A stretch of DNA of 64,000 bases. It comes from Abditibacterium sp. Its GTDB lineage: Bacteria > Armatimonadota > Abditibacteriia > Abditibacteriales > Abditibacteriaceae. Positions 40,450 through 50,382 of the stretch are shown here, in pieces. Within the stretch, counting starts at the first letter, position 1. Every line of letters starts with the position of its first letter. The notes under the pieces were generated by a model, which did not search any database, had not been told where the DNA came from, and saw nothing but the letters and a program-made list of their open reading frames with translations. The stretch is taken from contig CBDASK010000003.1 of the NCBI GenBank assembly GCA_965199495.1, forward strand, positions 2,016,001 to 2,080,000, in the 5' to 3' direction. The translations under genes were made by a program, and so were the position numbers.

Positions 40450-41013
40450 CTATTTCACGCGTTCGAGATAGTTGCCGGTGCGGGTGTCCACGCGAATGGA
40501 TTCGCCTTCGTTGACGAAAAGCGGGACGGTGATGACGGCGCCGCTTTCGATGGTCGCTGGCTTGGTGCCGCCCTGCGCGGTATCGCCTTTCAAACCCGGA
40601 TCGGTTTGCGTGATGACATATTCCATTGTCTGCGGCGGCTCGACGCCCAGAATATGCTCTTTCCACTTGGTCAATTGGACGGGCGTGTTATCTTTGAGAA
40701 ACTTGGCGACATCGCCGACCTGCGCGGCGCTCAGTTGCATCGGTTCGTAGCTTTCCATGTCCATGAAATGAAAATCTTCGCCGTCGCGGTAGAGAAACTC
40801 GACGTTTGTGCGTTCGACGAGCGCGGAATCCATGCTGTCGCCCGCGCGCCACGTTTTCTCGAAAGTCGCGCCGGTTTGCAGATTTTTCAGTTTGGAGCGC
40901 ACGAAAGCGCCGCCCTTGCCGGGCTTGACGTGCTGAAAATCCATGATTTGAAACACTTTGCCTTCGTATTCAATGGTGAGACCGTTTTTAAAATCGGATG
41001 TTGAAATTGCCAT
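40450..41013 (-). CDS. efp: Elongation factor P
   Basis: QHVKPGKGGAFVR, PGLKGDT, KPATIESG and VDTRTGNYLER. Confidence 0.98.
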   Translation of the reverse strand: MAISTSDFKNGLTIEYEGKVFQIMDFQHVKPGKGGAFVRSKLKNLQTGATFEKTWRAGDSMDSALVERTNVEFLYRDGEDFHFMDMESYEPMQLSAAQVGDVAKFLKDNTPVQLTKWKEHILGVEPPQTMEYVITQTDPGLKGDTAQGGTKPATIESGAVITVPLFVNEGESIRVDTRTGNYLERVK

Positions 41014-41020
41014 GAGTAAA

Positions 41021-41055
41021 AAGGATAAAGCATAAAGGAGGAAGGCTCAAGGCCA
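41021..41055 (-). repeat. Heptamer tandem array (AAGSNNN x5) ending 7 nt before the efp ATG
   Basis: AAGGATA AAGCATA AAGGAGG AAGGCTC AAGGCCA on the + strand. Confidence 0.65.
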
Positions 41056-41193
41056 ACGGCGACTTTCGCTGGCGACTTCGGTTGCTGGCTCGCTTGAATA
41101 TGGGCATTTCATTTGCGTCGAATCGGGATAAATTAACTCGCGCCCCCACCCAAACCTTTGTGGGGGCGGCGCTCGAAATTCTCCAAAAAGATC

Positions 41194-42612
41194 ATGTTCC
41201 CCTTCAAAAAACCTCCCTCGCGCGCCGAAGTCGCCCGAAAAACCGTCATTGATGTCGCCGATTCGTTTTCTCATCACGCGCTCGATTTGCTGGAAAACGC
41301 GACCGATTTTATTGAGGGCGCATTAGACAGCGCGCACGACAAACTGGAAATCATCGGCGAAAAAGTCGAGCATGCCGTCGAGAAATCGCCGCTCGAAAAA
41401 GCCAAGTTAGCGGCGGGCGCCGCCGCCGTGGCTGCCAATGTAACGGCTACGGCGAACCAAGCCGCCGAAAAAGCGGGCGCGCTCAAAATGGGCGCCGCCA
41501 GCGCAGCAGCCACGGCGGGCCAGAGCGTCGCCGGTAAAGTCGGGCAAACCCTTTCCAAAGTGCGCACCCCCGACGATGACGTGCCCGACGTGAAACGCGC
41601 GCGCAAACAGGCGCAAAACCAGATTGACACCATGAACAAAGAAGCCGCCAATTACAAACGCGAACTCGAAAAAGAGTTGGCGCGCGACCAAAAACTCTTC
41701 GACGCCGAACAAGAACGTCTGCAACGCGAATATAACGAGTTGCAAAGCGACCTTTATCGGGCGCGTCGCGAGGCCGAGGAAGAGCGCAAAACGTGGGACA
41801 AAAAGCGCGAGCAAGACGATGAGAAACGCGACATCGTGCGCGTGCCAATCGCGCCGACCGACCGCGTTGTGGGATTTGACGACGATGACGATGAGGACGA
41901 TTATAACGACGGCGATTTTCGTTACGACGATGACGAAAAGCGTAGTGGTGGCAACGCGTGGCTCATTTTGGGCGGATTGTTATTGGCGAGCGCGGGCGCG
42001 GTTTATTATCTGTTTTCCTCGACCGATGGCAAGCGCAAACGCGCGCAGATTCAGGATCGTGTCGGGCAGGTCGCCGATGGCGTGCGCGAAAAAGTAACGC
42101 AACATTCGGACGAAACCGGTGAACCCAGCGTCGAAGAAGTGACCGAAGCCGCGAGCGAACTTTCCGATTTTTCCAACGAGAAAATCGCCGATGCCGATGA
42201 TTTGATCGGCGCAACAATCGAAGCCAAGTTGCCGCCAACGAGTTCTTCTGTCAGCCAACCCAGTTTGCCCAACAAGGCCGTGGATAAAATCGAGGAAGTC
42301 AGCGACAAAGTCGCCGACGGCATCGCGGGAGCGGGCGCATTTCTGGCCGACAAACTCGAAGCCGCCGGAGCGGGCGCCAAAAGCGCGGCCCACTCCGCCG
42401 CCGGAAAACTCGACGATGTCAAAGACAAAGCCGCCGCCAAATTGGACGACGTGAGAAAGCCAGCGCCCGGCGCGGCCAAAACGCCCAACGCCGTCGTCGT
42501 TGAGGTGATCAGCAACGAACCCGTCACTAAAGAAACGACCGAAGAAGTTTTGGCCGAAGTCGAGGCGACCGTGCGCAACATCGAAAATTCGGCGCGCGAA
42601 GAAAGGAAGTAG
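41194..42612 (+). CDS. Hypothetical coiled-coil, single-TM protein (YtxH/LEA-like character)
   Basis: Ala/Asp/Lys-rich helices. TM segment followed by SSTDGKRKRAQIQD. Confidence 0.7.
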   Translation: MFPFKKPPSRAEVARKTVIDVADSFSHHALDLLENATDFIEGALDSAHDKLEIIGEKVEHAVEKSPLEKAKLAAGAAAVAANVTATANQAAEKAGALKMGAASAAATAGQSVAGKVGQTLSKVRTPDDDVPDVKRARKQAQNQIDTMNKEAANYKRELEKELARDQKLFDAEQERLQREYNELQSDLYRARREAEEERKTWDKKREQDDEKRDIVRVPIAPTDRVVGFDDDDDEDDYNDGDFRYDDDEKRSGGNAWLILGGLLLASAGAVYYLFSSTDGKRKRAQIQDRVGQVADGVREKVTQHSDETGEPSVEEVTEAASELSDFSNEKIADADDLIGATIEAKLPPTSSSVSQPSLPNKAVDKIEEVSDKVADGIAGAGAFLADKLEAAGAGAKSAAHSAAGKLDDVKDKAAAKLDDVRKPAPGAAKTPNAVVVEVISNEPVTKETTEEVLAEVEATVRNIENSAREERK

Positions 42613-46520: not shown

Positions 46521-46527
46521 AGTTTTT

Positions 46528-46632
46528 AAGGTGACAAGTAGCAGGTCTCAGGTGGCAAGTGAAGGAAGCGCGCACTTTCGCTCAACTTTTAATTTCTTCC
46601 CTTGCCACTTGTTACTTGAAACCTGACACCTT
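46528..46632. repeat. Inverted heptamer arrays (gene-less element) filling the argC-phosphoesterase gap
   Basis: AAGGTGACAAGTAGCAGGTCTCAGGTGGCAAG at 46528-46559 and CTTGCCACTTGTTACTTGAAACCTGACACCTT at 46601-46632, both with 7-bp period. Confidence 0.8.
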
Positions 46633-47785: not shown

Positions 47786-48436
47786 ATGAAAAAAGCATTA
47801 ATGGTCTGGGGCGGTTGGGCGGGTCACGAGCCGGAGCAAACCGTGAAACGGTTCGAGCCGTTTCTGCGCGACAATGGTTTCGAGGTGCGCATCGAAGACA
47901 ACATGGACGTTTACACCGACACCGAATATATGAAATCGCTGTCGCTCGTGGTGCCGATTTGGACGATGGGCAGCATTGAAAACGAACAGGAAAAAGGTTT
48001 GCTCGAAGCCGTCAAGTCGGGCGTCGGCCTGGTCGGTTGGCACGGCGGAAGCGGCGATTCGTTTCGCCAGAACACCGGCTATCAGTGGATGATCGGCGGC
48101 CAGTGGGTCGCGCATCCGGGCAATATCATGGATTACACGGTGCAAATCACCGACAAAGACCACGAAATCACGCGCGGCTTGAACGATTTTTCGATGCACT
48201 CGGAGCAGTATTATATGCACACCGATCCGGGCAACCACATTTTGGCGACCACGACATTTTCGGGGCAGCACGAAGGCGCCGATTGGATTGCGGGCACGGT
48301 CATGCCGGTTTTATGGACGCGTATGTGGGGCAAAGGCCGCGTGTTCTATTCGTCTCTGGGCCATGTCAACTCAGATTTTGAAGTGCCCGAAGCCGCCGAA
48401 ACCGTGCGTCGCGGAATGTTGTGGGCGGCGCGTTAG
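47786..48436 (+). CDS. ThuA-like (class I glutamine amidotransferase-like) protein
   Basis: WGGWAGHEP, GWHGG, GGQWVAHPG, SEQYY and GRVFYSSLGH. Confidence 0.9.
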   Translation: MKKALMVWGGWAGHEPEQTVKRFEPFLRDNGFEVRIEDNMDVYTDTEYMKSLSLVVPIWTMGSIENEQEKGLLEAVKSGVGLVGWHGGSGDSFRQNTGYQWMIGGQWVAHPGNIMDYTVQITDKDHEITRGLNDFSMHSEQYYMHTDPGNHILATTTFSGQHEGADWIAGTVMPVLWTRMWGKGRVFYSSLGHVNSDFEVPEAAETVRRGMLWAAR

Positions 48437-48439
48437 GTA

Positions 48440-48628
48440 AGGAACAAGGGGCAGGGAGCAAGGGACAGGGATAGCGGAATTTACTTGTTGGGACTGGTAT
48501 CAGACTGACAGGTGGCAGTGTTTTAAGCAGACAACTTCCGCAATAGCTAAAAATTTCCGCTAAGATAACAACAAATAGCGGACTGAAATTCCCCCAATCT
48601 TGTCCTTTGTTCCCTATCCCTTGTCCCA
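48440..48628. repeat. Purine-rich heptamer array (48440-48474) and complementary pyrimidine-rich array (48601-48628)
   Basis: AGGAACA AGGGGCA GGGAGCA AGGGACA GGGATAG, then TGTCCTT TGTTCCC TATCCCT TGTCCCA. Confidence 0.85.
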
Positions 48629-48637
48629 TTTTTTATC

Positions 48638-49039
48638 ATGGCTATCAAGCGTTTTGAAGACATCAAATCTTGTCAAGAGGCGCGCGTGTTGGCCGGAGAA
48701 ATTTACGAAATTACAAATGGTGGTGATTTTGCTCGCGACTATGGTTTGAGAGACCAAATTCGGCGGGCCACAGTTTCGATATTGAGCAATATCGCCGAAG
48801 GCTTCGAGAAAGATACGCCGCGCGAGTTCTGTCGATATTTACGCATCGCAAAAGGCTCGGCGGGTGAGGTGCGCGCCCAACTTTACGTGGCGCTTGATGT
48901 CGGTTTTCTAACCGAAACGCAATTCAATTTGCTCTATAATCGCGTCAGCACTATCAGTCGATTACTTCACGGACTGGTTCGCCAACAAGAAGCCGTCATA
49001 GATTCTCAACAACCTCCGCGCCCATCCAAAACATTGTAA
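48638..49039 (+). CDS. Four-helix-bundle protein (23S rRNA IVS-protein / bAvd-like fold)
   Basis: FEDI...DYGLRDQIRRATVSILSNIAEGF...F.RYLRIAKGSAGEVRAQLY.A.D.G. Confidence 0.93.
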   Translation: MAIKRFEDIKSCQEARVLAGEIYEITNGGDFARDYGLRDQIRRATVSILSNIAEGFEKDTPREFCRYLRIAKGSAGEVRAQLYVALDVGFLTETQFNLLYNRVSTISRLLHGLVRQQEAVIDSQQPPRPSKTL

Positions 49040-49049
49040 TCTCTTTACT

Positions 49050-49077
49050 TGTCCCCTGTCCCTTGCTCCTTGTCCCT
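49050..49077. repeat. Pyrimidine-rich heptamer array downstream of the four-helix-bundle gene
   Basis: TGTCCCC TGTCCCT TGCTCCT TGTCCCT, ending 6 nt before ATG 49084. Confidence 0.85.
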
Positions 49078-49083
49078 TAGAAT

Positions 49084-50190
<1,107 letters not shown>

Positions 50191-50246: not shown

Positions 50247-50382
50247 TATAGCTTTTCCTAATTAGCAAACTACACCAGCGGGGCTGACGCCCTCTTCCAA
50301 TCGGCGGAGTTCCTCGAAAGCGCGCTGATTGGAAGAGGGCGTCAGCCCCGCTGGTGTAGTTTGCTAATTAGGAAAAGCTATA
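50247..50382. repeat. Palindromic element, family G; perfect 56-bp arms overlapping the kinase stop codon
   Basis: Arms 50247-50302 and 50327-50382. Confidence 0.9.

Follow-up and report, generated by a model that had tools for sequence, protein, structure and literature searches.

Inverted heptamer arms around a four-helix-bundle gene inserted between thuA- and gfo-like genes of Abditibacterium, and their gene-less relatives in the same genome

Introduction

The closest described counterpart of the locus reported here is Coxiella burnetii's S23p intervening sequence (IVS), which possesses a terminal stem of ~28 bp with tandem heptamers (GACAGAT) and is cut by RNase III (PMC4990558, Warrier et al. 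2016). The accessible text of that paper also notes the tandem heptamers upstream of the IVS gene and treats them as a local feature. A second counterpart are the REPIN/RAYT systems, in which, according to the accessible text of Bertels and Rainey (2011, PMC3116915), a few genes framed by their cognate repeat occur together with many gene-less inverted doublets, which form hairpins in extragenic space, in several cognate groups per genome. On the protein side, the accessible preprint text on Avd of diversity-generating retroelements (DGR) describes a barrel of five protomers to which an RNA stem-loop is bound, its bases seated in the inter-protomer crevices, whereby the protomers hold flipped-out bases with the same residues (bioRxiv 10.1101/2023.10.23.563531). 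Over-represented intergenic 7-mers of Xanthomonas and Nostoc are characterized, in the accessible part of Rehm et al. (2015, PMC4692102), as arrays of mostly four units, often in inverted pairs, 70 of them in Xcc. Genes of the four-helix family have furthermore been found inside cas operons, as the accessible text of PMC3936711 states. Our literature search, which covered main texts outside subscription journals, found no report joining this family with inverted heptamer arrays outside rRNA, and as far as this literature shows the design has been published only for the Coxiella 23S rRNA IVS.

Results

Architecture of the locus

The DNA analyzed is a stretch of 64 kb from Abditibacterium sp., referred to as the window; its source genome (labelled G000) is a 95% complete assembly. 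The features of the locus, all on the + strand, are as follows:

47786..48436, +, upstream host gene, ThuA-like, 216 aa (PF06283, E 6.5e-52)
48434-48436, +, thuA stop codon TAG
48437..49083, +, whole insert, 647 nt, 47% GC
48440..48474, +, 5' purine-rich arm, four RGKRRCA units and one degenerate unit
48475..48598, +, loop of the first hairpin, unique sequence
48599..48628, +, first pyrimidine-rich arm, ending 9 nt before the ATG of the four-helix gene (48638)
48638..49039, +, four-helix-bundle gene, 133 aa (TIGR02436 / PF05635), with Cys12 where the family has Trp
49048..49077, +, second pyrimidine-rich arm, ending 6 nt before the gfo ATG (49084)
49084..50190, +, downstream host gene, Gfo/Idh/MocA oxidoreductase, 368 aa (PF01408, PF22725)

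The initial annotation had placed a four-helix gene between thuA-like and Gfo/Idh/MocA genes, with a purine array directly behind the thuA stop and one complementary array in front of each of the two following start codons. Profile matches for all three genes and the coordinates of the arms corroborate this arrangement: the purine arm (AGGAACA, AGGGGCA, GGGAGCA, AGGGACA and the degenerate unit) begins 3 nt past the stop, and both pyrimidine arms lie at the claimed distances of 9 and 6 nt. The cassette thus sits between two protein genes, not inside an rRNA gene, and with its 47% GC it differs from both neighbor genes and from the genome (56%). The purine arm is complementary to the first pyrimidine arm over 42 nt (76%) and to the second over 25 nt (92%), the second being 76% identical to the first over 29 nt, and the inverted repeats at the ends form a long stem around the open reading frame. 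The predicted fold of 48430-49090 has an energy of -215.7 kcal/mol (z -4.67; 0 of 20 shuffles were as good), so that complementarity and fold computation both agree with the proposal that the single 5' array can pair with either 3' array.

The loop at 48475..48598 has no second copy in the source genome or in the fetched loci. It contains no promoter-like or terminator-like site; the scan for such sites gave matches at chance level and none within the insert on the + strand. Rfam returned no match for the insert up to E 5. The framed gene matches only PF05635/TIGR02436, in line with the claim that the cassette has no recognizable transposase, and no target-site duplication is visible in comparison with the junctions of the relatives G011 and G004, both of which have diverged and are filled by Uma2. 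Contigs of two DNA runs, one of which is probably the source sample, cover the insert without any difference and agree on the TGT codon of Cys12; neither the insert nor Cys12 is therefore an assembly error. Downstream of gfo the window contains a multi-copy palindrome (50277-50352) at which contig coverage reaches 10-30x the local depth.

The junction in relatives

Forty relatives with ThuA were searched and the best 29 loci were examined. No gfo gene followed within the locus in 12 of these, and 17 keep the thuA-gfo pair. The four-helix gene is absent from the junction in all 17 relatives with the gene pair, which identifies it as an insert. Seven of the 17 junctions are empty, with 11-51 nt up to the gfo match and, in one of them, a stop that overlaps the start. 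Five hold a Uma2 gene (L005, L006, L011, L020 and L024; Pfam-confirmed in four, the fifth being frameshifted and named by likeness), and the remaining five hold inserts of different kinds, one of which, in L025, is a gene-less heptamer hairpin. Small inserts are gained and lost at the thuA-gfo junction. In L024 a 5' heptamer array stands in front of the Uma2 gene.

With respect to the alignment of empty sites that had been suggested for this junction, the seven relatives supply empty junctions, and no close strain yielded an exact empty site. One contig joint skips 48465-49049 and carries 37 other letters instead, at a depth of 4 and with a shorter side of 23 letters. It may stem from a sister organism in which the site is empty or carries a different hairpin; the loop it contains occurs neither in G000 nor in any fetched locus, and the joint does not enter the comparison above.

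The framed protein

The window protein scores 108 bits with TIGR02436 (cut-off 24) and 113.6 with PF05635 (cut-off 33.8). Its structure model (pLDDT 94) resembles 2GSC (Xcc0516) with a TM score of 0.87 (range 0.85-0.89), 2RLD (BT_0352) with 0.74-0.84 and Avd with 0.76-0.79 at 12% identity. The likeness to Avd was picked up by structure comparison only and not by the sequence profile; on the basis of the model, the protein shares its fold with bAvd, as had been assumed. 2GSC and 2RLD contain five chains each, and by analogy to both the window protein is predicted to form a homopentameric ring. We know of no catalytic site or motif in this four-helix family.

The unusual cysteine, which had been taken as a sign of decay, is real: the alignment column of Cys12 holds W in 130 of 140 family rows and C in 2. 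The decay of this copy was not borne out, because the cysteine is a single substitution in an otherwise intact gene. Compared with its 75%-identical paralogue the gene exhibits pN 0.11 and pS 0.75, so it was under purifying selection.

Inverted arms around related genes

The association of the arrays with the family was analyzed for 133 genes, i.e. 138 family matches in 135 loci minus 4 with short flanks and 1 duplicate. The loci stem from the window's family and phylum and from 80 close relatives of one paralogue in many phyla, the latter restricted in this way because the family alignment was too diverse for a pattern search. In this sample, which is biased to one subfamily and one phylum, contains non-independent kin and does not stand for the whole family, 112 of the 133 genes possess an inverted repeat between upstream and downstream flank. 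For comparison, such a repeat was found around 2 of 90 further genes in these loci and in 12 of 400 mismatched flank pairs, and a direct-orientation repeat in the flanks of 19 of the 133 family genes. The framing is not due to chance, and the suspected association of arrays and family holds.

The arm period of the 112 framed genes is 7 in 83, 8 in 13, 9 in 9 and none or other in 7 cases. As in the window, the arms extend from stop to start: the median distance from the upstream stop to the beginning of the 5' arm is 4 nt (between -15 and 20 in 73 of 100), and that from the end of the 3' arm to the next start is 10 nt (between -15 and 25 in 63 of 95). The arms pair over a median of 4.3 units, and in 91 of the 112 cassettes the 5' arm is rich in G. 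A third array is not the rule, since it is present in 17 of 129 loci only; in the source genome all three family genes show it, with a purine arm, a loop and a pyrimidine arm ahead of the gene and another pyrimidine arm behind it, and each gene has a unit of its own. Beyond these three genes, a search of G000 for remnant family genes gave only weak matches. Unit similarity climbs with protein identity, from 2.9 to 6.3 of 7 letters, and the units share a weak phase motif T-N-N-N-R-R-G (3.15 bits versus at most 2.61 in 30 shuffles, kinship uncorrected). In a Lyngbya record (L125) a four-helix gene lies between the arms of an inverted repeat that exceeds 125 nt.

Heptamer hairpins without a gene

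Period-7 arrays outnumber other non-triplet periods in the source genome, which contains 85 intergenic gene-less heptamer hairpins, 74 of them between co-directional genes. Their arms measure ~26 nt and the hairpins lie a median of 4 nt after a stop and 11 nt before a start. The loops are unique; a search for a common loop sequence, as expected for a MITE, gave one 25-nt match among the 85 hairpins. The initial annotation was right that arrays go with the family, and missed that most of them are gene-less hairpins.

By their units, 62 sites belong to the type around two of the four-helix genes and 22 to the type of the third gene, and for two further families (19 and 18 sites) the 95% complete assembly contains no cognate gene. 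The fourth of these types frames a gene in G004. Hairpins that match arms of genes of their own genome amount to 54 of 81 in G000 (random sets 2.5), 5 of 6 in G004 (random 0.6) and 3 of 6 in G012 (random 0.2), the random sets being uncorrected for kinship; in G023, 2 of 20 hairpins match the one fetched of its four genes (P 0.16). Hairpin density likewise differs between sampled genomes with and without the gene. Three sampled genomes without a TIGR02436 match contain 1, 0 and 0 hairpins in 1.14 Mb total, the single one being the site for which the stretch was chosen, and three with 3-4 matches contain 6, 20 and 6 (32 in 1.2 Mb); the samples measure 340-400 kb each, and the six genomes are kin with counts uncorrected for kinship. 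The density in the source genome is 5-12 per 400 kb. The RGKRRCA family is expanded in one clade only (147, 24 and 14 matches, and at most 2 in the other 24 genomes). The 14 matches to the unit pattern belong to G011, an 87% complete genome that has no TIGR02436 match.

The position behind a stop codon is not special to heptamers or to this family, because 458 further of the 1856 co-directional gaps (40-450 nt) hold a long inverted repeat of other classes and Uma2 genes occupy the thuA-gfo junction itself. Altogether about 530 of the 1856 co-directional gaps in the source genome hold a long inverted repeat. Hairpins adjoin genes of core operons that we take, by sequence likeness, to be rplV, acpP/fabF, rbfA and rpsP; the names rseP and ispG are assigned on the same presumption.

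Several further repeats were observed in this genome. The window contains a gene-less AGGATAA-type heptamer array at 41013-41194, past the efp start region and between divergent genes, of a family for which the assembly contains no cognate four-helix gene. Heptamer hairpins lie on either side of a gene upstream of RNase III (G000:C3:1278965 and 1280335), one of them directly in front of the RNase III gene. Two GxxExxY genes are accompanied by inverted 9-mer arrays (L188:1501-1854 and L189:1501-1839, at G000:C3:3511092 and 730046), and at least 36 gene-less hairpins have a period of 8-10. Genes that we presume, from sequence likeness, to encode Y1 transposases occur with REP-like palindromes, together with a gene that we likewise take to be GIY-YIG-like (G000:C3:21687, 1577938, 1749731, 3721449 and 3607828), the latter framed by a 94-score palindrome.

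Turnover of the hairpins

Nineteen hairpin sites of G004 and G011 were compared with G000. Five have the same heptamer family with other units and loops, and three have another heptamer family, in one case with the switch around a conserved terminator-like loop. A decayed remnant was found at two sites of one junction, another palindrome class at three, and none or another insert at three; the remaining three were not resolvable. A heptamer hairpin or remnant is thus kept at 10 of the 19 compared junctions. At one site, four relatives carry related four-helix genes with different units, and G000 carries a gene-less heptamer hairpin. The window itself contains a further instance:

46521..46632, no strand assigned, hairpin of the same heptamer family without a gene, flanked by an argC-like and a metallophosphoesterase gene

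In one contig, with flanks that diverge by only 9 in 250 letters, a different stretch of ~100 letters takes the place of this hairpin, and further contigs contain other forms. Hairpins at orthologous junctions are replaced fast.

Folding and the mRNA level

The initial annotation had proposed an mRNA-level intervening element. In such an element the outer stem would loop the gene out and RNase III would cut it as in 23S rRNA, or two folds would switch between translation of the passenger and coupling of thuA and gfo. A Coxiella IVS of the same design is cut by RNase III according to the accessible text of PMC4990558. An RNase III gene is present in the source genome, the arms span from stop to start, and the G-rich 5' arms tie orientation to transcription. 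Furthermore, Shine-Dalgarno sites are nearly unused (300 versus 244 in the control, of 2300 genes), so that the closeness of stop and start could matter; the end of the 16S rRNA retains the anti-Shine-Dalgarno sequence despite the near-absent signal.

The computed energetics, however, provide no basis for a switch. Duplexes of equal stability are computed for the purine arm with either pyrimidine arm (-52.9 and -54.8 kcal/mol), and the optimal structure combines both in nested form, half of the purine arm pairing with each; forbidding either duplex costs only 5-8 kcal/mol, whereas forbidding the purine arm costs 52. During transcription the short hairpin would form first, its sequence being finished 450 nt ahead of the distal arm, and a third array occurs in the 17 of 129 loci only. 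Stems selected as mRNA should show more G-U than A-C among their arm mismatches on the sense strand, a test of modest power. Neither 74 hairpins (G-U 57 versus A-C 77, P 0.10) nor 111 cassettes (118 versus 103, P 0.35) show a G-U excess, in contrast to 248 terminator-like control stems (50 versus 29, P 0.024).

Intragenic cassettes also speak against removal from the message. Five cassettes lie inside DNA methyltransferase genes (Eco57I-type, DUF1156; L038, L145, L157, L159 and L163), and in all five the host frame is open throughout, in the same shifted frame, one that is free of stops in only 7 of 135 genes overall. This is expected for read-through translation, whereas splicing would not require it. 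No split host gene with a closed frame was found among the hosts having a homologue in G000, and RNase III, which cuts without re-joining, could not restore the junction. Although both predicted pairings can form, the two-state switch is not supported, and we regard an intervening element at the mRNA level as unlikely. L159 also contains several gene-less heptamer hairpins that are read in frame.

Discussion

We propose that the four-helix gene and the heptamer arms constitute a gene-plus-repeat system, in which the protein of the insert would bind its own heptamers and help to seed or keep the gene-less hairpins. We give this explanation about an even chance. The cassette would land in the gap from a stop codon to the following start codon, where the operon would tolerate it because the insert cuts no reading frame and brings no terminator; it would not be excised from the mRNA. 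The three-array form (arm, loop, arm, gene, arm) may link the gene-bearing and the gene-less state, because recombination or slippage between the 76%-identical pyrimidine arms could drop the gene and leave an ordinary hairpin, and the reverse could put a gene into a hairpin. The predicted five-part ring would bind its own heptamer units, by analogy to bAvd possibly with one unit read per subunit; the arms comprise a median of 4.3 units and the ring five subunits. The cassette does not encode the catalytic step, for which repair or recombination enzymes of the host would be responsible. The two hairpin families without a cognate gene (19 and 18 sites) and the pattern matches of G011 without a gene count against this explanation, as do the low match in G023 and the fact that other hairpin classes and other passengers occupy the same kind of position. 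In addition, the match between hairpins and arms and the correlation between unit and protein would also follow from shared descent or co-inheritance, or from genome-wide gene conversion.

Alternatively, the protein could be a passenger: the hairpins would be generated by slippage combined with template switching, or by some other enzyme, and four-helix genes would gather, as Uma2 genes do, at tolerant junctions and inherit the arms present there. Unit families differ by single letters, so that slippage and arm-to-arm correction could interconvert them, and the heptamer family indeed differs between genomes at the 3 of 19 junctions, once around a conserved terminator-like loop. The families without a cognate gene and the lack, to our knowledge, of a catalytic site in the protein point in the same direction. 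A mere gathering at tolerant sites, however, does not account for the fact that only 2 of 90 neighboring genes are framed, and that small genes framed by other palindromes in the source genome are of other kinds with a repeat class of their own (GxxExxY with 9-mers). Moreover, heptamer hairpins are nearly missing from the sampled genomes without the gene. We therefore consider the passenger explanation improbable, to the same degree as the mRNA-level one.

A host-selected regulatory device, with hairpins that tune segmental mRNA stability or translation and the protein as a domesticated regulator, would suit the position of hairpins in what we take to be core operons, the 10 of 19 junctions that keep a hairpin or remnant while its letters change and the purifying selection on the four-helix gene, but is very unlikely with respect to the empty thuA-gfo junction that works in seven relatives, the swap of hairpins in strains with 9 differences in 250 flanking letters, the patchy gene content at a site and the missing RNA-pairing signature.

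Returning to the gene-plus-repeat system, a wider version can be put forward only tentatively, and we deem it rather doubtful. Thereby the pentamer would be the recognition part of a transposase-free replicator, which reads one heptamer with each subunit, recruits host enzymes to write or rewrite inverted heptamer arms at operon junctions and is the long-sought source of the intergenic heptamer repeats of bacteria; rRNA intervening sequences and the nesting in methyltransferase genes would be special landing sites, and the GxxExxY genes with their 9-mers a sister system. The gene-plus-repeat explanation links two unexplained things: a protein family that is very large and has no known function, and the intergenic heptamer repeats that are over-represented in bacteria. 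If the protein indeed drives the repeats, it would be a REPIN-like replicator without a transposase. The genome studied here is a good test bed, with three genes and two hairpin families with and two without a cognate gene; because both sorts coexist in it, specificity is testable with natural controls.

Comparison with described systems

Insertion sequences and MITEs were considered and rejected, given that no transposase is present, the loops are unique and no target-site duplication is visible. The same fold relates the protein to DGR Avd (4DWL, 8UB7), but at the low identity given above and with no DGR reverse transcriptase in the neighborhood of the window gene. The source genome encodes two reverse transcriptases of ~510-520 aa (L186 and L187, at G000:C3:69267 and 1618350), which score best as retron-type, below the NCBIfam cut-offs, and lie far from the cassette. 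The Xanthomonas and Nostoc heptamers differ in that they were studied as G-quadruplex formers, with no protein partner named in the accessible text of PMC4692102.

With the Coxiella IVS, as the accessible text of its description presents it, the cassette shares a PF05635 protein, a gene in a stem loop, heptamers in the 5' arm, a patchy distribution and the lack of a transposase; it differs by its place between protein genes, by its three arrays and by the large population of gene-less copies. The features of REPIN/RAYT systems named at the outset recur here as well. RAYT, however, is an HUH tyrosine transposase in the accessible text of PMC3116915, and REPs are conserved short palindromes, whereas the present arms are degenerate tandem 7-mers around unique loops. 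Gain, loss and replacement of such hairpins were seen between genomes. New in the present analysis are the gene-less hairpin population, its match to the arms of own genes and the difference in hairpin density between sampled genomes with and without the gene. By its defining features the cassette is not an IVS, a REPIN/RAYT or a DGR; it would work most like the first two, and the system most likely has the build of an rRNA intervening sequence and the distribution of REPIN/RAYT.
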